From positions 3,038 to 67,037 of the forward strand of contig JAISGO010000038.1 of the NCBI GenBank assembly GCA_031263025.1: 64,000 nt of DNA, written 5' to 3'. The stretch comes from Coriobacteriales bacterium. Its GTDB lineage: Bacteria > Actinomycetota > Coriobacteriia > Coriobacteriales > UBA8131. The notes beneath the pieces are model-generated. The model was not told the origin of the DNA, made no database searches, and saw nothing but the letters and a program-made list of their open reading frames with translations. A program made the position numbers and the translations under genes. Of this stretch, positions 3,848 through 29,024 are shown piece by piece; the stretch's first letter is position 1, and the number at the start of each line of letters is the position of its first letter.

Positions 3848-4678
3848 ATGATTGATTCTTCGCAACAAGCTCCACAGATCGAAGTCGCCGCCAAAGCCGG
3901 CGCTTGCTATGGCGTGCAACGCGCCCTTGATCTGACTGACCAAGCCCTCGCCGAAGCCGATGGCAGCAAGGTTTACAGCCTCGGCCCCCTCATTCATAAC
4001 CCCCAAGTCATCGCCGAGCTGGAGACCCGTGGCGTCAAGGTGATCGACCGGCTTGACGCAGCCGGCCCGGGCCGGCTAATCGTACGCACCCACGGCGTCC
4101 CCCCCGACCTCGCGCTCCCCCCTCACACCATTGATGCGACTTGCCCTTATGTCAAGATCGCCCAGCGCAAGACCGCCGAACTCGCCGCTTCCTGCGACCA
4201 AGTGGTAATCGTGGGTGATGACGGGCATCCCGAAGTCGAGGGGCTCAAGGGCTACGCCGGCGACAAGGGGGTAGTCGCCGCTGATACCAAGGCCGCCCGG
4301 CAGATCAAGCAGACCGGCAGCGTCGGCATCGTCGTCCAAACCACCCAAAGCCAAGCTGCCTTAAACGAAGTAGCGGCTTGCTTCGAGGCGCCTCGGATCG
4401 CCAACACTATCTGCCGGGCCACCGCCGAACGTCAACAAGCCGCAGTCGAACTTGCCCAGCGCGCCGACTCCATGCTCGTGGTCGGCGGACGCAACTCCGG
4501 CAACACCAAACGTCTGGCCGACCTCTGCGCTGCGGTCTGTCCCAACACTCATCTGATCGAAGGGGCCTCCGAGATCGACCCATCCTGGCTAGTAGGCTCC
4601 CAGCTCGTCGGCATCAGCGCTGGCGCCTCTACCCCACTCGCTCAAATCGAGGAGGTAAGGCATGCGCTTACCGACTGA
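3848..4678 (+). CDS. ispH: 4-hydroxy-3-methylbut-2-enyl diphosphate reductase
   Basis: LytB/IspH N-terminus GACYGVQRAL, HNP motif, conserved Cys positions. Start moved to ATG 3848 because 3758-3847 lies inside the 72-bp repeat. Confidence 0.88.
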   Translation: MIDSSQQAPQIEVAAKAGACYGVQRALDLTDQALAEADGSKVYSLGPLIHNPQVIAELETRGVKVIDRLDAAGPGRLIVRTHGVPPDLALPPHTIDATCPYVKIAQRKTAELAASCDQVVIVGDDGHPEVEGLKGYAGDKGVVAADTKAARQIKQTGSVGIVVQTTQSQAALNEVAACFEAPRIANTICRATAERQQAAVELAQRADSMLVVGGRNSGNTKRLADLCAAVCPNTHLIEGASEIDPSWLVGSQLVGISAGASTPLAQIEEVRHALTD

Positions 4679-5843
4679 AGTCGACGGACATCCCATCCGC
4701 GACCTAATCGACTGGCGTTGGTGGACCGACCAAGCGCGTTTCTGCGTAAGCTACGCTGACGGTAGCACCGAAGAAGTCGAGCGCGATCCCCAGACAGGTT
4801 TGTTACCCGCTCGTTTCGAGCAACTGCCGCCGATCTTCGACCAAGTAAGGCACTGCGTCAACGACTGCAACTTCTGTTTCGTCAAACAATTGCCCCCGGG
4901 GATGCGTGATTCGCTCTATGTCAAAGATGACGACTATCGGCTCTCTTTCTTGGAGGGCAACTTCGCTACCCTCTCCAATCTCTCAGAGGCCGACCTGGAG
5001 CGCATCGTAGAGATGAGCCTCTCGCCCCTCTACGTCTCCCTGCACAGCCTCGATCCGGATCTGCGCCAGACAATGCTAGGCCAAAACGCGGCTCGGGGCT
5101 TAGCCAACCTTAAGCGCTTGCTGGCAGCGGGGATCACCTTTCACCTTCAGGTGGTCTTAGTACCGGGTTATAACGATGGCGCAGACCTAGAGCAAACCAT
5201 GGCCTGGGCCGAGCAACAGACAGGGGCTTTAAGCCTGGGTGTAGTGCCTTTTGGCTATACCCGTTGGTCGAAACTGGCCAAAGAAGCTGGCGTCACCAGA
5301 CCGAAGCGGGTCAGTGGTTGTGGACTAGCAGAAAACGACCAGGTCAAAACAGCCTTACAGATCATCCGCCAGGCCCAACCCTTTGCCAAGACGATGCTGG
5401 CTGATGAGTTCTTCCTCAAGGCTTATGGCGCCGCTGCCACAGACAAACTGCCGCCAGCGGCCTACTACCATAACTACTGTCAGTACGAAAACGGCATCGG
5501 TATGCTGCGTTACTGGCTTGACCAACAGCAGCTGACAGATGATGACGGAGACTCGATCTTATACATCACCGGCGAAGCCTTTGCCGGGATCTTAAAGCGT
5601 TACCATAAGCGAGTCTTAGCGGTGCGCAACGATTTCTTCGGCGGCAACGTCAACGTGGCCGGCCTTTTGACCGGCCAGGACGTGATCGCTCAAGCCAGGC
5701 CGGTGCTTGCTGCAGAATCGGCCGATACGCTGGTCTTACCGGCCCAGATGTTCAATGACGATGGCCTGACCTTGGATGGCATGAGCTTAGCTGAGATCAG
5801 CCAAGCGCTGGCGGTGTCGGTTGAGTTAGCCAATGAAGGTTGA
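4662..5843 (+). CDS. DUF512 family (radical-SAM-like Fe-S) protein
   Basis: CVNDCNFCFV and KDDDYRLSFLEGNFATLSNL are characteristic of DUF512. Confidence 0.75.
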   Translation: MRLPTEVDGHPIRDLIDWRWWTDQARFCVSYADGSTEEVERDPQTGLLPARFEQLPPIFDQVRHCVNDCNFCFVKQLPPGMRDSLYVKDDDYRLSFLEGNFATLSNLSEADLERIVEMSLSPLYVSLHSLDPDLRQTMLGQNAARGLANLKRLLAAGITFHLQVVLVPGYNDGADLEQTMAWAEQQTGALSLGVVPFGYTRWSKLAKEAGVTRPKRVSGCGLAENDQVKTALQIIRQAQPFAKTMLADEFFLKAYGAAATDKLPPAAYYHNYCQYENGIGMLRYWLDQQQLTDDDGDSILYITGEAFAGILKRYHKRVLAVRNDFFGGNVNVAGLLTGQDVIAQARPVLAAESADTLVLPAQMFNDDGLTLDGMSLAEISQALAVSVELANEG

Positions 5844-13503: not shown

Positions 13504-15081
13504 ATGTATGATGACGCTAAGAGCATAAGTCATTTCTCGCGAGCAGCCCAGTTCGGGATTTGTTTGATGTTATCTTTCTTATTAGCTGTGAGCTTGTTGC
13601 AGCTCAACCTGCGTCCTGTTTATGCCCAAACCGGGTCCCCAGTCCTGTATCAGCTCCGGCAAGCAGACGATGGGGCGACCCCGCAGGTTCATAGCAAGGC
13701 TGACATCACGAACTATATCACGGCAAACAACATACAGGTCAACACCCCGGTAAGCTACGCGGTTAGCCCCTCACTTACACCGCCCTACGCGCCGGGCAGC
13801 CTTTCGGACACGACACAGCAGCAGGCGCTCAAGACGCTTAACCTTATGCGCTACATCGCGGGCATCGACCCGGTCTCGCTCGACGACTCCTATGAGGAGA
13901 CGGCACAGGCGGGCGCCATGGTCAACGCCATCAACGGTGTCATCAGCCATTTTCCCACGCGCCCCACTCAGCTCACTGATGATGCGCTCTGGAACCTTGC
14001 CTATACTGGCACTTCCTCGTCCAACCTAGGCCAGGGTTATCCCACCCTTGGTTCTGCCATCATCGATGGCTGGGTCAATGATGGCGACCCCTCCAATATC
14101 ACCATGATCGGCCATCGACGCTGGGTGCTCAACCCGACGATGGCGGCCACCGGCTTCGGCTATGCGGGAGACCAGTCTGCCATGTATTCTTTTGACAGTA
14201 ACCATGCACTTGACTACGCCGATGTCGCATGGCCAGCACGCACCATGCCCTTGGAGTATTTCGGAAATGACTACCCCTGGAGCGTTTCAACGAACACACG
14301 GGAAGACCTGACGCAAGTTAAGGTAAGCCTGGTGCGGCTTTCCGACGGGAAGACCTGGCACTTCTCACAGGCGAGCGCGGACGGCTATTTCAATGTCGAT
14401 AACCAGGGTTATGGTCAGCCGGGCTGTATCATTTTCCGCCCAAGTGGGGTGGACTATAAGATAGGCGACAACTTCAACGTAACCATTTCCGGGCTTTCGG
14501 GCGGTACGCTCTCTTATACTGTCGATTTCGTAAAGCTGGGAATCGGCACCCTTGACGGTCATTCAGTTGGCGTCGATCTTCCGTCTAATACCAGAATTCC
14601 GAACCCGAATCTGACCTGGACGGGCACGCAGATACGGCCGACCACGCTAGAAGCAGGTTCGACAGTTCTCCGGGCTGGCGTCGATTTCACGGCAAGCTAC
14701 AGTGATAACACCGCTATCGGCCGCGCTCGCATGGAGATCACCGGCATCGGCAATTATTCAGGCAGCGGAACTATCTTCTTCAATATCCTTCCTGCGACGC
14801 CGAAGATCAAAAGCCTAAAATCGGGCAAAAAGAAGCTCAAAGTCTCTGTTGCGGGGCTTTACAAAGGAGAAAAGCTCAGCGTATACCAGCTGCGTTATCG
14901 CATCAAGGGCAAAAAAGCCTGGACGAGCAAGACGATTTCCGCAAAAAGTCCGACCTATTGGTTGAAGAAACTCAAATCCCGCAAAGAATACCAAGTCGCA
15001 GTTCGCTGCTGGAAAGCAGTTTCCGGCATCAACTATTACAGCGCCTGGAGCGGGATCAAGGCAAGCAAGCGGATAGGCTAA
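13504..15081 (+). CDS. secreted CAP/SCP-domain protein with C-terminal Ig/FN3-like domains
   Basis: signal-peptide-like N-terminus ending VYAQ; GHRRWVLNP CAP motif; C-terminal LKSGKKKLKVS..YQLRYRIKGKK domain. Confidence 0.7.
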   Translation: MYDDAKSISHFSRAAQFGICLMLSFLLAVSLLQLNLRPVYAQTGSPVLYQLRQADDGATPQVHSKADITNYITANNIQVNTPVSYAVSPSLTPPYAPGSLSDTTQQQALKTLNLMRYIAGIDPVSLDDSYEETAQAGAMVNAINGVISHFPTRPTQLTDDALWNLAYTGTSSSNLGQGYPTLGSAIIDGWVNDGDPSNITMIGHRRWVLNPTMAATGFGYAGDQSAMYSFDSNHALDYADVAWPARTMPLEYFGNDYPWSVSTNTREDLTQVKVSLVRLSDGKTWHFSQASADGYFNVDNQGYGQPGCIIFRPSGVDYKIGDNFNVTISGLSGGTLSYTVDFVKLGIGTLDGHSVGVDLPSNTRIPNPNLTWTGTQIRPTTLEAGSTVLRAGVDFTASYSDNTAIGRARMEITGIGNYSGSGTIFFNILPATPKIKSLKSGKKKLKVSVAGLYKGEKLSVYQLRYRIKGKKAWTSKTISAKSPTYWLKKLKSRKEYQVAVRCWKAVSGINYYSAWSGIKASKRIG

Positions 15082-15136
15082 GACGAAAAAGGGCAAAGCT
15101 TGTTGTCCGCTAGGACCTGGCTCGTTTCCGAAAAGT

Positions 15137-15215
15137 AACGGGGACACTCTAAATCGCTTCGGACAGGCTCAGGCCTAAGTGAGCTTAGCTGGGGCGATTT
15201 AGAGTGTCCCCCGTT
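15137..15215. repeat. long hairpin of the GGGGACACTCTAAAT family between the CAP gene and gltX
   Basis: AACGGGGACACTCTAAATCGC (15137-15157) pairs with GCGATTTAGAGTGTCCCCCGTT (15194-15215), 1-nt bulge. Confidence 0.85.
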
Positions 15216-16624
15216 TAGTCGACCAACTGCAAGGCCCGCTCGATCCGGGTCAGCACCAGGACGCGGTCGAGCAGCGCGATCGACTCGTTCAGCGGCGGCG
15301 AAACCATGTTGCCGCAGACCGCCACCCTGAGCGGTTGCCAAAAGAGCTTCGGCTTTAATGCCAACTTGGCCAATGCATCGTCGAGGGCGGCGGTGATAGG
15401 CTCCAGGGTCCAGTCCGCACTGCCGAGGGCGGCAAGGGCGGCTTTCTGCGCCTCGAGCGCGTTTTTGGCCGCAGCGGCATTGGCGGCGGCATTGTCTCCC
15501 CCGCCGCCGCGCAGTACCTTTTGCACCGACCTCTCATCCATCGCCAAGTGGTCGCCGCTAAAGAAGTAAGCGAGCTTGGGGGCGGCTTCGGCGAGGGTGT
15601 CGATGCGCTCGCAGACGAGCGCATACATCGCCTCGTACCACTCGCGCCGGGCGCTCGGGTCGGGTAGCTGCCAATCCTCAGCGTCGGCCGCCTTGATCAG
15701 ATAGGGCCACCAGGCGTCGACAAAGGCAGACGCCCCCATCTGCTTGATATATTGTTGGTTGACCCAATTCAGTTTCTTAGCGTCGAAAGTGGCTGGGTTC
15801 TTGGAGACATGGTCGAGCTTGAACTTCGCCGCTAAGGTCTCGCGCGCAAACAATGTGGTCTTCCCATCCGGGGCCCAGCCAAGCAGAGCCAGGTAGTTCA
15901 CCATCGCCTCCGGTAGGTAGCCCTCACCGCGGTAGGCCTCGACGCTGGTCGCACCGTGGCGCTTGGAAAGGCGCTTGCCGTCATCGCCTAAGATCATCGA
16001 GAGGTGGGCAAACTCTGGGATACGATAGCCGAGCGCACGGTATAACACGATCTGCTTGGGCGTGTTGGAGAGGTGATCATCGCCGCGGATGACGTGACTG
16101 ATTAACATATTAGCATCGTCGACCACCACCGCGAAATGATAAATCGGCGAGCCGTCGGAACGTTTGATGATGAAGTCCTCGACCTGGTCGCGTTCGACCA
16201 CGATGTGCCCGAAGACCAAGTCGTCGAACTCGATGGTGCGCTCCGGCCAGGCCCGGCGCACATCGAAGCGCCAAGCCGCGCTGTCGCCCTCGGGGTAGAC
16301 CAGGCCGGCATCTTGGAGTTTCTTGAACTCGCGCTCATAGAGCTCAGCCCGCTCGGTCTGGAGGTAAGGGCCAAAGTCCCCCCGGCTGCTACCATCCAAG
16401 GTCGGTCCCTCATCCCAGTCAAGGCCGAGCCAGGCCAGAGAGCGCAGGATCTGCTGGGTGTTCTCCGGGGTCGAGCGCTGCGCGTCGGTGTCCTCGATGC
16501 GCAGGAGAAATTTACCCCCGTGGGCACGGGCGAAAGCCCAGTTGTATATTGCGGTACGGGCCCCTCCTACGTGCAAATAGCCGGTCGGCGAGGGCGCAAA
16601 ACGCACCCGAATCTGATCAGACAT
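15215..16624 (-). CDS. gltX: glutamate--tRNA ligase
   Basis: HIGH-type PSPTGYLHVGGARTA, KMSKS-type RLSKR; ATG 16624 after GGAGGA. Confidence 0.9.
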   Translation of the reverse strand: MSDQIRVRFAPSPTGYLHVGGARTAIYNWAFARAHGGKFLLRIEDTDAQRSTPENTQQILRSLAWLGLDWDEGPTLDGSSRGDFGPYLQTERAELYEREFKKLQDAGLVYPEGDSAAWRFDVRRAWPERTIEFDDLVFGHIVVERDQVEDFIIKRSDGSPIYHFAVVVDDANMLISHVIRGDDHLSNTPKQIVLYRALGYRIPEFAHLSMILGDDGKRLSKRHGATSVEAYRGEGYLPEAMVNYLALLGWAPDGKTTLFARETLAAKFKLDHVSKNPATFDAKKLNWVNQQYIKQMGASAFVDAWWPYLIKAADAEDWQLPDPSARREWYEAMYALVCERIDTLAEAAPKLAYFFSGDHLAMDERSVQKVLRGGGGDNAAANAAAAKNALEAQKAALAALGSADWTLEPITAALDDALAKLALKPKLFWQPLRVAVCGNMVSPPLNESIALLDRVLVLTRIERALQLVD

Positions 16625-16695
16625 GGTTTCCTCCAATTCTCACCCGTTTATTCTAACCCGCTTTGCGAACCACCTCAAAGGAGGTCAAACTTTTT

Positions 16696-16719
16696 AGGGA
16701 CACCCTATAGAGTGTCCCT
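16696..16719. repeat. short hairpin version of the same repeat family
   Basis: AGGGACACCCTATAGAGTGTCCCT between gltX start and GNAT stop. Confidence 0.7.
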
Positions 16720-16726
16720 GCCCCAA

Positions 16727-17305
16727 CTAGGCTGCTAGGGCACGGCCCACGATCAGGACCTCGTCCGAGCTGATGCCAGCCATGGCATGAGCCCCCCACT
16801 CGACCCTTTTTCTGCCGATCAGGGAAAAACCCTGGGCCAGGTAATTACGATAACTCGCTTGGTTAGGCTCAAGCATGCTACTGATGGCGTAGTCATAACC
16901 ACGCCGGGCTAATTCATCCAGCCGATAGCGGATCATCAGTGCTTGCAGGCCACGCCGCCGAAATCGCGGATGCACCAAGTCGCCGCCCAAACTGGCCCAG
17001 CGCCTACCGCGCATGATCGAATCGGCCACCGCACCCGCGCCCAACCATTCCCCAAGGACAGGCTCGAGGTTGAGCAGGCTGCGCGCCGCCACTTCTGTCC
17101 CCACCAGGCACGCCAGGCTAAGGCGCTCCCCCATCCCATGCAGCGTCGCCGTCTCAGCGTCCAGGTCGCGGCGGAAGCTGACCATGATTGGATTGTCTTT
17201 TTCAAGACCGAAGATTACTTCCTGGTCGAAGAGCTCGACTGCCGCCGCGAGCGCGCTGTCGCTCCCATCCACTACCACCAAGCGTGGGTCAAACGTATCG
17301 TCCAT
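16727..17305 (-). CDS. GNAT family N-acetyltransferase
   Basis: acetyl-CoA motif A HPRFRRRGLQALM; ATG 17305 lies 4 nt after the KAP gene stop (ORF-track start 17344 alternative). Confidence 0.7.
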   Translation of the reverse strand: MDDTFDPRLVVVDGSDSALAAAVELFDQEVIFGLEKDNPIMVSFRRDLDAETATLHGMGERLSLACLVGTEVAARSLLNLEPVLGEWLGAGAVADSIMRGRRWASLGGDLVHPRFRRRGLQALMIRYRLDELARRGYDYAISSMLEPNQASYRNYLAQGFSLIGRKRVEWGAHAMAGISSDEVLIVGRALAA

Positions 17306-17309
17306 GACC

Positions 17310-19373
17310 TTATTTCTCGGCGTAGACATAAGCTGGATAAGCAATGGTTTGCGGGTGGAGTTGCTGGCAAAGCTCGAGGAAGCGTTCTTCGATCTGGGCG
17401 CGCAGGGGTTTGTCGATGGCGACGCCGAAAAGCTCGAGATAGCTCTGGGCGTTGGTCATGGCATAGTCTTGATAGAGCAGCTCCGGGGCAATCGTGTCGT
17501 CCTGCTCGATCTGCACTTTCAGGCTTGTACCCTTAAAACCACAATCAGCTAAAACCTGCTTTAAGCCCGCCTCGTCATAGAGATAGAAAGGCTCTGGTTT
17601 GCTTGCCAAGTCGAAGCCGAACTCCTCCATGACCTGGGCCAGCACCTGGCGCATGGCCTGATAGGTGCCCTTACTGCTCTGCTCGACCAAGAGTTTGCCA
17701 CCGGCCTTGAGCGCCGCATAGGCCTTCATATAGAAGACCTGCCCGGCCCAATGCGCCCCGGTGGTAGAGAAGACCGCGTCGAATTTTTGATCGTAGGCCA
17801 GCTGGTCGATACGCAGCTGCTCAAGTTTGACCCGTTTATCATCGATATCCGGCGCCTCATCGAGGGCTTTCTGGAAGGCCTGCAATAGATTGACCTCCGC
17901 GCTCACCGCCGTCACCTGGATCTTTGGATAGCGGCGCAAAAGCTCTAGGGTAAGCTGGCCATCGGCCGGTGTCAAATGCAGGATCCGGCCCTTTTCCGGT
18001 AACTCATATTTGTCGAGCAGCACCCGACCATAGGCCACCGTGGTCTGTACGTTCTCGGCGTAATCCTGGGCTTTCATACCGACGTTATTGCCATAGTTGG
18101 TGTTGACAAAACCGGACAGCCCGAGCACCTGGCTAAAGAGGATGTTGCGGTCGTTCTCGAGACCTTGGTTGATCTCCATCAGGGCTTGCATGATCTGGTC
18201 GACCTGGCCTTTGAAGGGCGAATGGGAAAGCGCCTGGCGGTACAGCTCGGCCCAGTTGCGGCGCAGGTCAAGGGCAGCACTTTTCTTCTCCGGCGTCTGG
18301 GCCAGAGCGTCCAAGACCAGCTGGGTCGGATGCCAGAACTCCGGAAAACGGCAGAGTTGGAGCACGAAATCAGGGCAGACCACCTTGAGGGCGATCACCA
18401 ATGCATTGACCAGTTTCTGTTCCTCTGAGCCTTGGGCCAGGAAATCATGGTTGTAGTGATCTTGCAGGACGCAGAAGCGCAGCGAGGTCAAGAAGCGCTT
18501 GAGCTTACGTGGGTTGGAGCCCACGATCCCTGCGACCGCGTCGCAGAGCCGCTCCAGCAAGGTCGGGTCGGCCTTGTCCAGGTACCCGATATCGGCCAAG
18601 CCCCGGGTCAGCATCTGTTTGCTGCGTTCCACCTGCACTGGCACGATGTAGGAGAACTGGAACAGCTTGTCGAAGTAATCACGGTAGATATGTTCGTCGC
18701 CCAGCGCCCCCGCGCCGTACTTTTGGGCCAGGCCGCGCGCAACCACGTTGAAGTCGATCGCGATCACGAAGACACAGTGCTCGATGAAGAAGACGTTCTT
18801 GAGGATCTCCAGGATATCCACCGCCACCTTTGGTTCGAGCCGGTCGAGGTCGTCGACGAAGAAGACGAAGGTCTTGCCCCCACCGCGTTTGACCAGGTCG
18901 GCGACCGCCTGGCGCAGTTGCTCGGCGGTATTGGCGGAGCTAGCCAGCGAAGCAGTCACGTTCTCCCCGTCACCACCCTGGAGACTGGCCATCACCCCCG
19001 CCCCTTTGGCGAGGAAGTCGCGCAGGTTGTGGCTAATCTTGTCCTTCAACTTGTCCTGCAGGCCGCATTTCTGCATAATCGACTGTACCAGGGAGGCGAT
19101 GATCCTTTGGGTGCCCTGTTCGCTGTCGCCGCTTACAAAATACTCCCAGGAATCGAGGTCGATCTCTTGGATGTCAGGCTCTGCCGCCAGTTTCTCGGCG
19201 ACCAGGCGCATCAGCGAGGTCTTACCGGATCCCCACTCGCCCTGGATAGAGAGGGTGAAAGGGGTGTCGACCGAGACGATCAGGTCGGCCAAAGCCTGGG
19301 CGTCGGCAGCGATGCCCAGATTGTCGTCGGCGCTGTCACAGATTGGGATATCATGGGTATAAAGGCTGCTCAT
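17310..19373 (-). CDS. KAP-family P-loop NTPase fused to a class-I-methyltransferase-like C-terminal domain
   Basis: Walker A GEWGSGKTS and Walker B FVFFVDDLDR. C-terminal ~220 aa carries FDAVFSTTGAHW and LKAGGKLLVEQ, but motif I reads ILHLTPADGQ instead of GxGxG. Confidence 0.75.
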   Translation of the reverse strand: MSSLYTHDIPICDSADDNLGIAADAQALADLIVSVDTPFTLSIQGEWGSGKTSLMRLVAEKLAAEPDIQEIDLDSWEYFVSGDSEQGTQRIIASLVQSIMQKCGLQDKLKDKISHNLRDFLAKGAGVMASLQGGDGENVTASLASSANTAEQLRQAVADLVKRGGGKTFVFFVDDLDRLEPKVAVDILEILKNVFFIEHCVFVIAIDFNVVARGLAQKYGAGALGDEHIYRDYFDKLFQFSYIVPVQVERSKQMLTRGLADIGYLDKADPTLLERLCDAVAGIVGSNPRKLKRFLTSLRFCVLQDHYNHDFLAQGSEEQKLVNALVIALKVVCPDFVLQLCRFPEFWHPTQLVLDALAQTPEKKSAALDLRRNWAELYRQALSHSPFKGQVDQIMQALMEINQGLENDRNILFSQVLGLSGFVNTNYGNNVGMKAQDYAENVQTTVAYGRVLLDKYELPEKGRILHLTPADGQLTLELLRRYPKIQVTAVSAEVNLLQAFQKALDEAPDIDDKRVKLEQLRIDQLAYDQKFDAVFSTTGAHWAGQVFYMKAYAALKAGGKLLVEQSSKGTYQAMRQVLAQVMEEFGFDLASKPEPFYLYDEAGLKQVLADCGFKGTSLKVQIEQDDTIAPELLYQDYAMTNAQSYLELFGVAIDKPLRAQIEERFLELCQQLHPQTIAYPAYVYAEK

Positions 19374-19384
19374 GGCCTGCCTCC

Positions 19385-20926
19385 TTAGGCTTGCCCCTCG
19401 AAAGCGGCCGCCTCGGCGGTGATCATACTAGCTAGGCAGACCCCGTCGTGATAACCGCTGAAGACACTTTGTCCGCTGGCCCGCACGTGGCTGCCCACGA
19501 ACTCACCCCTCACACAGAAAAGCCCGGTCAGGGTGTTAAAACTACTGAGATGATCCTGTTGGTCGGCCGCGAAGGGCGGACGCAGGGCGAGGTTTTCGGT
19601 CTGGGGCTGTCTCACGAAACGCTGCGCCAGGTAGTCGGTGTCCGCGCATTCGCGTAGGAGCTGCTCCCATTCGCTTGCCCCATAGTCACGCCCGGCATAG
19701 ACCCCGGCCGAGGCGTAGCCCTCGCAGGGCTTGATGATCCAGCGCTCCCGATGTTCAGTCAAACGCTCCAAGCTGAGCTCGTCTTCGGACAGGCGCGCGG
19801 TCAGGGGCACGTGGCGGTGCACGAAGCGGCGCTCCGAGGGGGTCAAAAGCTCGAATGTCTCAGGCAGATGCAGAACCCTGAACATCATCTTGCTGTGCGC
19901 TACTTGACTGGCGAAATGGCCGACCAGGCAGACCCGGCGGGCCCTGACCGCCTCGACCAGGGCTTGCTCACCTTTGCCAGCGCTCGCGAGCCCGTCGGCG
20001 AACTCGCTAGTCACGCAGCGCCGATAGACCAGATCGAGCGGTCGCTCGATCGCCAGGGGATCTGCCGCTAGCGCCTCGGCGCTCGGCGCCACCCAGAGCT
20101 GTTCATCGTGATAGCGCAGCTGGCCGACATCAGCTACCAGACAGGGATAGCCAGCTTCCTCGAAGCGCTGGCGGAATTGCTCGAACTCGGCCACGGTGCC
20201 GCGCTCCAGGTAGTCGATGATGGCGATGCGCGGCTTAGCGGGATGGTCGTGGACGGAATGGTCGCAGGCCCCACCATCAGCGTCTACTCCCTGCTCAGCT
20301 CGGGCCTCATCGTGGCCATGGTCTGGGCTTAGTAGCTTTGACTCCAGGTAGCAGCGCAGGATACCCGCGATGAAAGGCTGGAAGAGCTCCTGGGCACAAA
20401 GTGGGGTCTCGCCGACGAAACGCCGGTAGGCCGCGCTCTCCACCAGAGCGGCCGCACACTCGCGGTCCTCGTTCATCGCGCTGGCCCCGTCGGTATTGAT
20501 CTCACAAAAACGGAAATCACGTTTGCGGTCGTCGTAGAAGATATCAAAACGTCCGACCGGGATAGTACAGTTGTAGGTCACCGGCAGACAGATCAGCTGC
20601 TCGATGGTATCGGAGAAACCGAATAGCTTGCGGTAGTCGGGATTATCAAGATACTCCCTGGTACACTTGTCCAGGATCTGCCACATCTGGTCGATGACCT
20701 GGGCAAAGTAGAGTCGGTCGGTCAGGTCGTAAATCTTGGGCAAAAAGCCCATCTCCACCGGCTCACCGTGATAGATCGCAGTGGAATGTTGGATCTGCTG
20801 GTAAAAACGCCGTTGCGAGGTCAAATCGCCGTCCAGCTGGTAGAAGATCTCCTGATAACGTTGTTCGAGAGTATACATGGCAAAATTGTAGCTGACTTGG
20901 GACTTAGCCTTAGCGGGGACACTCAA
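19385..20926 (-). CDS. glutathionylspermidine-synthase-like ATP-grasp amide ligase
   Basis: VGRFDIFYDD..DFRFCEINTDGASAMNED pattern recalled from GspS-type ATP-grasp proteins; start uncertain (TTG 20926 or ATG 20878). Confidence 0.6.
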   Translation of the reverse strand: MSVPAKAKSQVSYNFAMYTLEQRYQEIFYQLDGDLTSQRRFYQQIQHSTAIYHGEPVEMGFLPKIYDLTDRLYFAQVIDQMWQILDKCTREYLDNPDYRKLFGFSDTIEQLICLPVTYNCTIPVGRFDIFYDDRKRDFRFCEINTDGASAMNEDRECAAALVESAAYRRFVGETPLCAQELFQPFIAGILRCYLESKLLSPDHGHDEARAEQGVDADGGACDHSVHDHPAKPRIAIIDYLERGTVAEFEQFRQRFEEAGYPCLVADVGQLRYHDEQLWVAPSAEALAADPLAIERPLDLVYRRCVTSEFADGLASAGKGEQALVEAVRARRVCLVGHFASQVAHSKMMFRVLHLPETFELLTPSERRFVHRHVPLTARLSEDELSLERLTEHRERWIIKPCEGYASAGVYAGRDYGASEWEQLLRECADTDYLAQRFVRQPQTENLALRPPFAADQQDHLSSFNTLTGLFCVRGEFVGSHVRASGQSVFSGYHDGVCLASMITAEAAAFEGQA

Positions 20927-20932
20927 AATTGC

Positions 20933-22227
20933 CTAACCCCCGACCTGATAGGGCAGGTACGTATCCTGCAAAAGCAGCGGCACCCGCAGGCTCATCAGGA
21001 TACCATCCTCGCGGTAGGTCTTGGCCAGCACCTTGCATTGTTCATAGGCGAGATGCTCAAGCTGACCTTGGGCATAAGGGATACATACTGTCAGGAGTTT
21101 GCTCAAACGGTCGGCCTCCTCCTCTAGGGCCCGAAGCAGGAGCTCCATCCCCTGGCCGCTCTCCGCCGAGATCAAGACCGCCTCGGGATAGGCCACTTGC
21201 AGGTCGGCCCGCTCCGCCGCCGCAAGCAAGTCGCATTTATTGAAGGCCAAAAGAATAGGAATGTCCTTAGCCCCGATCTGGGCCAAGGTGGCATCGACCG
21301 CCTTGATCTGACCTTCGCGCAATGACGAGGAAGCGTCCACTAGATGCAGGACCAAATCGGCCTGGGTGATTTCCTCCAAGGTGGAGTTGAAAGCTTGGAT
21401 CAGGGTAGTGGGGAGCTTCTGGATGAAGCCGACCGTGTCGCTTAGGGTAAAACGCCGCCCATCGGGGAAAGCGGCCTTACGAGTGGTCGAGTCAAGGGTG
21501 GCGAAAAGCTTGTCATCAGCATAAGCCACGCCTTTGGTCAAGGTGTTGAGCAAGGTAGACTTGCCGGCGTTGGTATAGCCAGCCAGCGCCACCTTAAAGA
21601 CCCCCGAGGCCAGGCGGCCTCGACGCTGCTGGGCACGTTCTGCCGCCACCCGGGCAAGTTCTATCTTGGTGCGGTCGATACGCCGGTGCACCATCCGCCG
21701 GTCAACCTCGAGCTGGCTCTCACCCTCGCCGAAGCGCCCGCCTACACCGCCGCCCATGTGGCCAGAGGCCAAGTGGCTCCACATTCCGCGCAGCCGGGGT
21801 AGCAGGTATTGGTCTTGGGCCAAACGCACCTGCAGGCGCCCCTCGCGGTCTGGGCCCGCATCCCAAAGATATCTAGGATCAGGGCGGTGCGGTCAAGCAC
21901 TTTGGGAGCGCCGAGCTCGCGCTCGAGGTTGTCCTGTTGGGTCGGCGACAGCTCGTCGTCGAAGATCACCAGATCGGCATCGTGGCGCAGGACTGCCGCC
22001 GCCACTTCGCGCACCTTACCGGAGCCGATGAAAGTGGCGCCATTGGGGCGTTCCAGAGCCTGGCTGAACTCCCCCACCACCTCAGCGCCGGCGGTCTCAG
22101 TCAAACGGGCCAGCTCGGCCAGGGAATCCTCTACCGGCAGCAGCTGTCCACGCTGCTTCACCCCGACCAAGATCGCACGCTCGCGCGGCGCCGCCGTCTC
22201 CTGCAGCCTTGTCCTACTTTTTGCCAT
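20933..22227 (-). pseudogene. hflX: GTPase HflX, interrupted by a 1-nt frameshift (or sequencing error)
   Basis: The N-domain ORF (21742..22290) and the GTPase ORF (20933..21829: GYTNAGKSTL, DTVGF, NKCD) overlap. Restoring one C in CAGACC^GCGAGGGG (plus 21847-21848) gives the canonical RAQTREGRLQVRLAQ. Confidence 0.8.
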
Positions 22228-22249
22228 ACCGCTATAGTAGACTAAAAAC

Positions 22250-22828
22250 ATGCGTGAATTGCTTTTCGAGACTTCTACGCCCATGGCCAACGTAATCCCG
22301 CCCTACCAGGGTCTACAGGCAGAAGAGCTAAAAGGCCATCTCGCTCCCCAGCGCTCACCCTTGCTCAACCTCTGCATGAACCTGACCTCGGATTTCAACA
22401 AGGCCCAGCTGATCCGAGCCAGCAACGCTTTCCTAGCCCGGGCGGTCTGGCTGATCGGCACACGCAAGCTCGATTGCCGGGGGGCGGTCGGGATGCAATT
22501 TCTAGAGAAGGTCTGGGAATGTTCTAGCCTCGACGAAGCCGCAGCCGTGCTTGAGGCCGAAGACTATGTCCTCTTTGCCATCGACAACCAGCCCGAGCAA
22601 CACCCACGCTCGATTCACCAAGTCGAGCTGCCCCTACGCAGCGCCTTCCTTTACGGTGAGGAACGCCTCGGCCTTAGCGCCGGAGCGGTCGCCCGTTGCG
22701 GCGGCGGTATGCTCTGCATCCCCCAGCGCGGTGCCATCGCCAGCTTAAACGTCGCCCAAGCCGCCGCCGTGGCCATGGCCGAATACAACCGCCAACACCC
22801 ACTCAAGCAATCCAACGGGGACACTTAA
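22250..22828 (+). CDS. SpoU/TrmH-family RNA 2'-O-methyltransferase
   Basis: LYGEERLGLS and IPQRGAIASLNVAQAAAVAMAEY C-terminal knot motifs. Confidence 0.7.
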   Translation: MRELLFETSTPMANVIPPYQGLQAEELKGHLAPQRSPLLNLCMNLTSDFNKAQLIRASNAFLARAVWLIGTRKLDCRGAVGMQFLEKVWECSSLDEAAAVLEAEDYVLFAIDNQPEQHPRSIHQVELPLRSAFLYGEERLGLSAGAVARCGGGMLCIPQRGAIASLNVAQAAAVAMAEYNRQHPLKQSNGDT

Positions 22829-22908
22829 AATTGCCTGGCTAAAGCTGGCACAAATGCTACAATCTGTATCAGTTGCCCAAAAGCCAGAAGAAAAGTGAGG
22901 AAAACCCT

Positions 22909-23355
22909 ATGGCCAAGATCATCAATGTCACTGCTGACACCGTCTCGATCGGACTCGACGACGGCAGCCTTAAAGACGTGCCGCGCAATGTCTTTAACTT
23001 CGAGCCCGTGATCGGCGACCAAGTCGACTATTTCGAGAGCGCCGACCATGTGGTCATCAACAAGGTCAACAACGTCCAGGCCCAGGTCATCAACAACCCT
23101 GACGCCAAGTCAAAGCTGGCCGCTGGCCTGCTCGGCATTTTCTTAGGCGAGCTCGGCATCCACAATTTCTATCTCGGCTTCACCACCAAGGCTTTGATCC
23201 AGCTCTTGGTCACCATCATCGGCGGCGTTTTCACCTTGGGCCTGGCTTCTTTCGGCATGTGGGTCTGGGGCTTGGTCGAGGGCATCATGATCTTGTCCAG
23301 CAAACCCGGCAACAAGTGGCACCAAGACGCCACCGGTCTTGAGCTCAACGACTAG
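22909..23355 (+). CDS. TM2-domain membrane protein
   Basis: GIFLGELGIHNFYLG.. two-helix TM2 pattern; ATG 22909 after GAGGA. Confidence 0.7.
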   Translation: MAKIINVTADTVSIGLDDGSLKDVPRNVFNFEPVIGDQVDYFESADHVVINKVNNVQAQVINNPDAKSKLAAGLLGIFLGELGIHNFYLGFTTKALIQLLVTIIGGVFTLGLASFGMWVWGLVEGIMILSSKPGNKWHQDATGLELND

Positions 23356-23360
23356 AAGAG

Positions 23361-23831
23361 CTAAGCCAGCGGGTCAATCCGCAGAACCTGACCAGCCAAA
23401 GCCGCCTGAGCGATCTCTGCGAGGGCGGCTTTTTTCGTGCAGAGTTCTAGATAGAAATAATCCTCCTGGTTCGCCGCCCGGCAAAGCGCTGCGTCCTCTG
23501 CCACGAAAAGCGCTCCCGAGCGCGAGATCAGGAAAACCTCTCCGCCTGGCACCTCGAGCAGCCGCCAAGCGAGGCAGCGCTCTTCTGCCACTTCGCATAC
23601 CCGTGTAAAACGCAAACCCAAGCCCTCCCCGCCATAGGCTGGCTGGTAGTCACGCACCCGGTACTCGAGGCCAGCGATTCCCTGGTTCTGCGCGGATTTG
23701 GCAAAATCCCGGCCGAACTCGGCCAGGCCCAAGCGGAAGTCACGCCGCTGCGCCTCGGCCTCAAGCTGGTTGGCTTTGGCGATGATCTCGGCCTCGGTTG
23801 GGTTGGGGCTGTCGAAGGGCGGTTTGGGCAT
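23361..23831 (-). CDS. hypothetical protein
   Basis: 156-aa ORF with normal composition; TACAAT 7 nt upstream of the ATG (possible leaderless transcript). Confidence 0.45.
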   Translation of the reverse strand: MPKPPFDSPNPTEAEIIAKANQLEAEAQRRDFRLGLAEFGRDFAKSAQNQGIAGLEYRVRDYQPAYGGEGLGLRFTRVCEVAEERCLAWRLLEVPGGEVFLISRSGALFVAEDAALCRAANQEDYFYLELCTKKAALAEIAQAALAGQVLRIDPLA

Positions 23832-28942: not shown

Positions 28943-29024
28943 CAAACGGGGACACTCTAAATAGCCTCGCCACCGTTTACTCGCTTGTGGCCATATCCAA
29001 GGCTATTTAGAGTGTCCCCGTTTG
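28943..29024. repeat. perfect 24-bp-stem hairpin of the GGGGACACTCTAAAT family
   Basis: CAAACGGGGACACTCTAAATAGCC (28943-28966) / GGCTATTTAGAGTGTCCCCGTTTG (29001-29024). Confidence 0.9.

Follow-up and report, generated by a model that had tools for sequence, protein, structure and literature searches.

A rare KAP NTPase–methyltransferase-like fusion paired with a GNAT acetyltransferase, and its ATP-grasp neighbour, in a Coriobacteriales genome

We analysed a 64,000-nucleotide (nt) stretch of DNA from a Coriobacteriales bacterium (contig JAISGO010000038.1; hereafter the window). Three genes lie there between hflX and gltX, encoding an ATP-grasp ligase, a fusion of a KAP nucleoside triphosphatase (NTPase) to a methyltransferase-like domain (KAP-MT), and a GNAT acetyltransferase. 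The fusion and the GNAT recur together in other genomes, and we are highly confident that they make up one functional unit. It is also very likely, in our judgement, that the block combines two units with no relation to each other, namely a core ATP-grasp gene and an inserted KAP-MT/GNAT cassette. The explanation that accounts best for the whole is a core ATP-grasp gene accompanied by an inserted cassette that serves in conflict or stress; we hold it with confidence just short of evenly balanced.

Distribution of the cassette and composition of the block

Full-length KAP-MT fusions are rare. A word-based search returned only 8 others, and a scan of one genome per species gave 22 further ones. 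A profile search of 1.84 billion representative proteins yielded about 30 full-length fusion clusters with scores of at least 476 bits. Below these, the score fell sharply to 381 bits, where the KAP-only proteins begin, and 2,266 KAP relatives were found in the same search at E-values of 1e-30 or lower. The fusion, proposed in the original prediction as an architecture not recognised before, is real and rare, as evidenced by the Pfam matches, the Foldseek comparison of an AlphaFold 2 (AF2) model and these clusters.

We compared the neighbourhoods of the fusions with those of KAP-only genes. A GNAT gene adjoins the fusion in 30/32 informative loci (25 of 27 distinct genome or Logan loci; 5 of 5 metagenome loci), either directly downstream, often with a 4-nt overlap, or convergent and adjacent. 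The loci without an adjacent GNAT are L013, the context of protein P0002, and L024. By comparison, such a GNAT adjoins none of about 130 closely related KAP-only loci; L039, which at first seems to break this rule, has the look of a fusion split by a frameshift. Across the fusion loci, conservation extends to no other neighbour family. These counts support the GNAT as a true functional partner of the fusion. The cassette occurs sporadically in Clostridia, Izemoplasmatales and Coriobacteriia, and its genomic contexts are unrelated.

Other arrangements were seen among the relatives. In Petrocella sp. FN5 (L016), a stand-alone class I methyltransferase of 276 amino acids (aa) is encoded at 4555-5385, directly upstream of KAP-MT (Methyltransf_31, 139 bits), and groups in BLAST with the methyltransferase domain of the fusion. 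Among the KAP-only relatives (L034-L092), many Bacteroidota members are preceded by small conserved same-strand ORFs (open reading frames) of about 80-130 aa. Several ORF families recur at position -1 of the KAP-only genes and may encode regulators or partners.

The ATP-grasp gene keeps different company. In the loci of six relatives, a GCS2 gene (PF04107, glutamate-cysteine ligase family) lies directly upstream of the ATP-grasp gene in every case (6/6). The gene order is GCS2-ATPgrasp-gltX in L011 and L093, both from related Coriobacteriales, where gltX is the next downstream gene on the same strand; it is GCS2-ATPgrasp in L009, L010, L012 and L094. Since gltX follows the ATP-grasp gene directly in the related Coriobacteriales, the cassette is best read as an insertion between the two. 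No GCS2 gene was found in the window by tblastn with two GCS2 queries, and hflX sits in its place. GCS2 was likewise not found in any KAP-MT locus.

These comparisons bear on the original prediction, which had read the ATP-grasp, KAP-MT and GNAT genes as one three-enzyme pathway or sensing module. Its description of the locus was accurate: the three ORFs are co-directional between hflX and gltX, with gaps of 11 and 4 nt. No terminator-like structure was found upstream of 16718 within the run, and the customary GCS2 partner of the ATP-grasp gene is locally absent; both would suit a single module. However, the prediction had itself named a failure of the three genes to be co-conserved elsewhere as the outcome that would speak against it, and that is what was found. 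The ATP-grasp gene occurs in 0/32 other fusion loci, and KAP-MT occurs in 0/6 of the ATP-grasp loci examined. Moreover, P0002 and the ATP-grasp-side protein P0166 have 113,253 bp as the length of their longest listed contig, probably a shared one, yet no ATP-grasp gene is found up to 8 kb away from P0002. We therefore give a conserved three-gene unit hardly any credence and treat the cassette and the ATP-grasp gene separately below.

Domains of the fusion and of its partner

The KAP_NTPase model (PF07693) matches the N-terminal part of KAP-MT (residues 25-299) with 119.6 bits, the cut-off being 20. The motifs GEWGSGKT, FFVDDLDR and ILHLTPADGQ, from which the fusion had been recognised, are present where they had been placed (Table 1). 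The Walker cores are invariant across 26 fusions (G45, W47, G48, G50 and K51; D174, L176, D177 and R178), and the NTPase is presumably active. All 48 columns that are invariant across these fusions, which include the Walker motifs and residues of the methyltransferase domain, are kept in the window protein. The structure of KAP-MT was predicted by AF2 from a 40-sequence alignment. The model has a predicted local distance difference test score (pLDDT) of 79, and residues 440-687 mostly reach 80-96. KAP-only relatives align to KAP-MT up to residue 430-445 or so, and the region of about 300-440 is helical in the model. No credible transmembrane segment was found in KAP-MT. Its most hydrophobic 19-residue segment (Kyte-Doolittle value 2.0) corresponds to a beta-strand in the core that includes E, H and D, and the inserted helices at 84-163 are polar in the model. 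Given the lack of a transmembrane segment, KAP-MT is predicted to be soluble, like PifA. One relative, P0247 (981 aa), has the architecture KAP-MT-MT, with a tandem duplicated methyltransferase domain in which both copies carry the canonical GCGNG.

We next consider the proteins to which the KAP domain is related. The original prediction had linked it to conflict proteins, and this link holds, as the domain is homologous to the defence proteins PifA and QatA. The PADLOC profiles of PifA, PDC-S20 and QatA match the N-terminal half of KAP-MT only. For PifA, which provides phage T7 exclusion on the F plasmid, the N-terminal KAP domain is homologous over residues 5-301 (PADLOC PifA, 1e-28), and tblastn of KAP-MT matches plasmid pifA genes with 27.6% identity over residues 10-330. 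However, the similarity does not extend over the full length, and only positions 5-316 of the 720 in the profile match KAP-MT. PifA is also plasmid-borne and has neither a methyltransferase domain nor a GNAT partner, whereas no fusion was found on plasmids. PifA is a soluble protein without the transmembrane helices found in many KAP proteins (PMC13001434).

The KAP core is also common to QatA, of the anti-phage system QatABCD, and to PDC-S20. The NCBIfam QatA model gives 77-86 bits (77 for the window protein), but this is far under the equivalog cut-off of 600, and genes for QatB, QatC or QatD do not adjoin the fusion. PDC-S20, a candidate system made up of one gene for about 450 aa, differs from the cassette in having neither a methyltransferase domain nor a GNAT. 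The defence NTPases of the STAND type (Avs) likewise combine a P-loop switch with accessory domains and are sporadic, and some cassette loci lie beside TIR or TPR genes. In contrast to Avs, in which sensor, NTPase and effector reside in one protein, the cassette belongs to the KAP clade and has one effector encoded separately. Furthermore, its candidate effectors are transferases and not nucleases, proteases or NADases. No model in PADLOC 2.0 or NCBIfam covers the fusion or either type of GNAT, and the neighbours hflX, ATP-grasp, GNAT and gltX gave no PADLOC matches. Among the papers searched on KAP proteins with a methyltransferase, a GNAT or anti-phage activity, we found no description of this architecture. 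By comparative genomics alone, the cassette is best classed as a putative undescribed variant among the KAP-NTPase-centred systems.

The C-terminal domain of the fusion is a class I methyltransferase-like domain. In Pfam, it reaches 23.2 bits for Methyltransf_11 (cut-off 21.2) and 26.5 bits for Methyltransf_25 (cut-off 27), both weak matches. The modelled residues 441-687 have as their top Foldseek match 3ccf, a Tam-like protein, with a template-modelling (TM) score of 0.75-0.80, and match many methyltransferases with a probability of 1.0. Further matches are the juvenile-hormone acid methyltransferase JHAMT, the phosphoethanolamine methyltransferases (PMT), BioC, RebM and TleD. Judged from the model, the domain is of a small-molecule, largely carboxyl-methylating type and is not a DNA or RNA methyltransferase. 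The likeness to the carboxyl methyltransferases Tam and BioC lies in the fold and, among the clade-B relatives, in the motif pattern 'FSNA-LHW' and 'LAVHQGG'. These relatives reach 1e-20 for BioC (73.8 bits against 185) and 2e-16 for Tam (60 against 320), under the curated cut-offs of NCBIfam, and the window protein itself gave no match to either model at E-values of 0.01 or lower. Unlike Tam and BioC, the domain is fused to an NTPase, and in the window protein the GxGxG loop and the acidic post-I residue are replaced. Matches to the PADLOC models mad2 and mad8 were considered as a lead to MADS and rejected, as the similarity to mad2, the MADS DNA methyltransferase, is of the generic class I kind.

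The replaced glycine loop for S-adenosylmethionine (SAM) had been pointed out in the original prediction. The loop is indeed degenerate in the window protein, but this is a property of one lineage. Motif I (E/D-x-G-x-G-x-G) and an acidic residue behind beta-2 are both required to bind SAM. In 21 of the 26 fusions, motif I reads LD[VI]GCG[NS]G and beta-2 is followed by an Asp. The remaining five form a Coriobacteriia clade with a degenerate motif I, which reads H-L-x-C-Q-D-G in four members and HLTPADG in the window protein; the post-I residue of this clade is Glu, Asn or, in the window protein, Ser. The family-specific residues S536, H541, W542, Q565 and Y571 are invariant, the window protein included. 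In a neighbour-joining tree of the KAP region, built without bootstrap, the fusions are monophyletic with respect to KAP-only outgroups and the degenerate clade is nested within them, which indicates that the loss of the SAM motif is derived. A metagenome scan gave extra clade-B cassettes and no new member of the degenerate clade. It is doubtful, on these motifs, that the window domain binds SAM, and in the window clade the domain is probably a scaffold or ligand-binding domain.

The degeneracy raises the alternative that the cassette is a decaying relic in this genome, with the methyltransferase inactivated, the region rearranged and the function gone. Motif I and the acidic post-I residue are lost, and the window version is the most degenerate of all. 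The adjacent hflX is frameshifted, and the ATP-grasp gene has no GCS2 partner anywhere in the 64 kb of the window. However, both ORFs of the cassette are intact, a strong Shine-Dalgarno sequence precedes KAP-MT, and none of the 48 invariant columns has been lost. In addition, the altered loop is conserved among the four other clade members at about 40% identity. The kept family residues and the conserved altered loop speak for a retained, non-canonical role and against decay, and we consider a relic quite improbable.

The GNAT partner is more divergent. The window protein scores 20.2 bits with Acetyltransf_1 (PF00583), just below the cut-off of 20.7, and its partners in L004 and L007, which are 34% identical to it, score 25.6-26.1 bits; the clade-B partners reach 30-45 bits. 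Motif A of the window protein reads R-R-R-G-L-Q, so that its last position is neither G nor A as in the pattern R/Q-x-x-G-x-G/A. Like the fusions, the partner GNATs divide into two groups, one subfamily for each fusion clade, and the window type has an insertion of about 45 residues. A word-based search with the window GNAT returned only itself. For both subfamilies, the matches in the PDB and NCBIfam are weak and generic: YqjY, N-alpha-acetyltransferases, RimI, phosphinothricin and aminoglycoside acetyltransferases, and ArsN1. In L007, the GNAT partner of P0005 (2642-3643) is convergent and has an extra C-terminal region of about 140 aa without a Pfam match.

The weak best matches to RimI and to N-alpha-acetyltransferases, together with the translation-related genes that flank the cassette here, could point to a housekeeping modifier of the translation apparatus, in which a RimI-like GNAT and a PrmA-like methyltransferase act beside hflX and gltX. 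However, the RimI match has about 20 bits against a cut-off of 86. The hflX/gltX context is found only in this genome and the neighbours elsewhere are unrelated, and a housekeeping family would be far less rare and sporadic than this one. This explanation strikes us as highly improbable.

A further possibility is an addiction module like a toxin-antitoxin pair, with no primary role in defence. The GNAT would be a growth-arresting toxin, for instance one that acetylates aminoacyl-tRNA or a translation factor, and KAP-MT would neutralise or gate it. GNAT toxins of similar size are established in systems of the TacAT/AtaRT type. The tight coupling of the two genes, often with overlapping reading frames, and their sporadic insertion among unrelated genes are what such a module would display. 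However, no structure of TacT, AtaT, KacT or ItaT was returned by PDB profile searches with both GNAT subfamilies, and no ribbon-helix-helix or DUF1778 antitoxin is present, the adjacent gene being the 687-aa KAP-MT. A partner of that size, with the large protein encoded first, is atypical, and the GNAT is absent from the fusion loci L013 and L024. We regard a toxin-antitoxin role as improbable.

Candidate mechanism and the case for and against it

We return to the reading of the cassette as a conflict or stress system. A mechanism in which an NTPase gates a modification, of the PifA or QatA kind, is plausible by analogy, though we put it forward tentatively and at somewhat under even weight. 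By analogy with PifA, QatA and NTPases of the STAND type, the KAP domain would act as an NTP-dependent switch or sensor. The switch would control two transferases, one for carboxyl methylation (the fused domain) and one for amine acetylation (the GNAT), and the GNAT may be translationally coupled to KAP-MT, or nearly so. The target of modification could be a small molecule, a peptide or a protein. In the window clade, the methyltransferase domain would serve as a scaffold or in ligand binding, and the GNAT would be the sole catalytic effector. The most probable role would be in inter-genomic conflict, directed at phages or mobile elements, or in another stress-triggered protection.

A more specific version is a good deal less secure, and we offer it as a possibility on the unlikely side. 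The cassette may be an unrecognised NTPase-switched conflict system whose effectors modify their target by methyl-esterification and N-acetylation and do not cleave it. The Coriobacteriia methyltransferase would then be a pseudo-enzyme that gates the acetyltransferase, possibly as a sensor of a ligand or of SAM-related metabolites.

To our knowledge, KAP NTPases are among the least understood P-loop switches, and only PifA and QatA have phenotypes, neither with a known mechanism. Two recognisable transferases built into a system with a KAP protein would indicate what such a switch controls, and acetylated or methylated products can be searched for. If the conflict role is true, transferases would be added to the known range of effectors in bacterial conflict systems. 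The canonical and degenerate methyltransferase clades provide a natural comparison that could separate catalytic from structural roles.

The genomic surroundings give mixed signals. In the Lachnospiraceae loci L025, L026, L029, L031, L032 and L037, the cassette lies beside genes for large TIR-domain proteins (TIR-HD and TIR-beta-propeller) and a TPR protein, with a Tubulin_2 protein of 1,135-1,187 aa and an unannotated protein of 730-900 aa nearby. These flanks look like a conflict-gene island conserved across several species.

Several results weigh against the conflict reading and against the insertion. First, the TIR-rich loci are probably orthologous among related species and thus amount to about one observation, not several independent ones. 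In most loci, that of the window among them, the neighbours are housekeeping genes and not defence islands; elsewhere they are ordinary genes (purA, phosphoglucomutase, P-type ATPase, GGDEF-EAL and oxoprolinase). In addition, the phage and plasmid collections contained only KAP-only relatives and no copies of the cassette. The PADLOC models matched neither GNAT subfamily, and the comparison of the two subfamilies by hhalign gave a probability of 6.5%, which leaves no link between them beyond the GNAT fold. The methyltransferase fold, which is that of enzymes for the biosynthesis or detoxification of small molecules, fits a metabolic role equally well. Finally, the GC content and the third-position GC content of the cassette match those of the flanking genes, which implies that the cassette either has been in place for some time or was acquired from a similar genome. 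No insertion scar was recognisable, target-site duplications not having been specifically searched for, and the upstream junction is only 11 nt.

A metabolic role is the main rival. The cassette could act in detoxification or antimetabolite resistance, or as an accessory metabolic step. The substrate would be a toxic amino-acid analogue or carboxylic acid, with N-acetylation by the GNAT, O-methylation by the Tam/BioC-like domain, and KAP confined to regulation or assembly. The methyltransferase matches are indeed Tam, which detoxifies trans-aconitate, BioC, JHAMT and natural-product methyltransferases. The best weak matches of the GNAT include phosphinothricin acetyltransferases, ArsN1, aminoglycoside acetyltransferases and YqjY, and the neighbours are mostly housekeeping or metabolic genes. 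However, all of these matches are far under the family cut-offs, and no transporter or regulator is conserved beside the cassette. Methyltransferase activity would appear, from the motifs, to be dispensable in the Coriobacteriia clade, and the fusion is kept nonetheless. We know of no detoxifying transferase that requires a KAP/STAND-like NTPase. Detoxification is in our view unlikely, and the conflict or stress reading of the cassette remains the one that we prefer.

The ATP-grasp gene, the junctions and the intergenic repeats

The ATP-grasp protein was compared with known ligases. It matches the Pfam family CP_ATPgrasp_2 with 27.8 bits, below the cut-off of 32, and all its matches to circularly permuted ATP-grasp families are sub-threshold. 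The family is large in Coriobacteriia and Lachnospiraceae, and many homologues match PF14403 or PF03738 (GSP_synth). The AF2 model (pLDDT 84.7; predicted TM score 0.86) has the circularly permuted ATP-grasp fold of the glutathione-synthetase/GspS type. Its top Foldseek matches in the PDB are the human, yeast and plant glutathione or homoglutathione synthetases, 3n6x (a putative glutathionylspermidine synthase) and E. coli GspS. The top 49 matches are glutathione or homoglutathione synthetases, GspS, trypanothione synthetase and YgiC/YjfC, with the unnamed ligase Cp1B as the sole exception. The likeness to eukaryotic glutathione synthetase and GspS is one of fold (E-value 1e-15; TM score about 0.6-0.68 to 8fbz, 2hgs, 1m0w, 3n6x and 2io7), but the sequence identity to solved structures is only 10-14%. 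The description of the protein as a GspS-like ATP-grasp, made from the letters alone, was thus right at the level of the superfamily.

Homologues of about 850 aa are fusions of the ATP-grasp protein to GCS2. As in the GshA/GshB and GshF pathways, relatives of the ATP-grasp protein are therefore paired or fused with a protein of the glutamate-cysteine ligase family; in contrast to those pathways, the partner is GCS2 and not GshA, and it is absent from the window. This partnership suggests the two-step synthesis of a gamma-glutamyl peptide or thiol, and the ATP-grasp protein, which retains every family-invariant column, is most simply seen as the ligase for the second step of a gamma-glutamyl peptide pathway that GCS2 initiates. 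In L011, a glutaredoxin gene is found near the ATP-grasp/GCS2 pair. The pair of GCS2 and a protein of glutathione-synthetase fold may mark an unstudied glutathione-like thiol route in anaerobic Coriobacteriia and Lachnospiraceae.

According to the ORF list, the minus strand carries every gene of the region, from hflX to gltX (Table 1). Other neighbours of the cassette in the window, besides hflX and gltX, encode a SpoU methylase and a TM2 protein.

Table 1. Features of the hflX-gltX region, in window positions
Feature	Position	Strand	Remarks
hflX	22290..20933	-	upstream flank; GTP-bdg_N in one ORF, GTP-bdg_M and MMR_HSR1 in the other (Pfam)
ATP-grasp ligase	19385..20878	-	497 aa; alternative TTG 20926 gives 513 aa; read as a core gene outside the cassette
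KAP-MT fusion	17310..19373	-	687 aa; cassette gene 1; KAP_NTPase E 2e-34 and weak methyltransferase families (Pfam)
KAP NTPase domain	18474..19373	-	aa 1-300; Walker A GEWGSGKT 19218-19241; Walker B FFVDDLDR 18840-18863
Helical middle region of KAP-MT	18054..18473	-	aa ~300-440; common to KAP-only relatives
Class I methyltransferase-like domain	17313..18053	-	aa 441-687; degenerate motif I ILHLTPADGQ 17955-17984
GNAT	16727..17305	-	192 aa from ATG 17305; cassette gene 2; partner of the fusion
Hairpin directly 3' of the GNAT stop	16697..16718		RNAfold -16.9 kcal/mol; 10-bp stem
gltX (glutamyl-tRNA synthetase)	15215..16636	-	downstream flank; tRNA-synt_1c E 1e-83 (Pfam)

The start of the ATP-grasp gene had been placed 6 nt after the hflX stop. 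This was not upheld: the N-termini of homologues align at ATG 20878, 54 nt past the hflX stop, and the public annotation of the identical protein (P0121) has 497 aa. The public proteins identical to those of the window derive from a metagenome-assembled genome of the Coriobacteriales. On this comparison, the gene more likely begins there than at TTG 20926. Its stop codon (TAA 19387-19385) is separated by the 11-nt gap from the KAP-MT start at ATG 19373, with a Shine-Dalgarno sequence, AAGGAGG, that overlaps this stop codon. Between the KAP-MT stop (TAA 17312-17310) and the GNAT start at ATG 17305 lie 4 nt. An alternative GNAT start at TTG 17344 had also been offered; it would indeed give a 35-nt overlap with KAP-MT, but ATG 17305 is the best placement, as the N-termini of partner GNATs from related fusions align there.

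The hairpin behind the GNAT gene has the core GGGACAC/GTGTCCC and lacks a U-tract, so the terminator scan gave no call. It is probably the 3' end of the transcription unit, and a promoter-like site for gltX follows it at 16678-16650. The ATP-grasp, KAP-MT and GNAT genes are probably co-transcribed in this window.

The product of hflX is a conserved ribosome-rescue GTPase. In the window, a -1 frameshift near 21846 (21840-21850) leaves the gene as two ORFs, 22290-21742 and 21829-20933, which overlap. The deletion, apparently of 1 nt, leaves CAGACC-GCGAGG in place of the expected ACC CGC GAG GGG CGC CTG CAG (T R E G R L Q). Either the assembly is wrong in a C run, or the gene is a true pseudogene.

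The block had also been described as bounded by members of the GGGGACACT repeat family. The hairpin at 16697-16718, which is related to the family, and a half-site at 20915-20934 are present at its ends, but the family occurs elsewhere too and does not delimit the block. The sequence GGGGACACT has 6 occurrences in the window against 0.4 expected. It is part of a palindromic family with full copies at 15136-15215 and 28945-29022, in which conserved 17-nt inverted arms (ACGGGGACACTCTAAAT / ATTTAGAGTGTCCCCGT) surround a variable spacer of about 45 nt. A second half-site lies at 22817-22836, and both half-sites have GGGGACACT[CT]AAAATTGCCT. An Rfam scan of 14500-23500 gave zero matches. The idea that the repeats are the ends of a mobile element was dropped, as they occupy several other intergenic sites and only a half-site lies on the hflX side. 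The repeats are general intergenic elements of this genome, and the family could be of the repetitive extragenic palindromic (REP) or miniature inverted-repeat transposable element (MITE) kind, or a regulator binding site.

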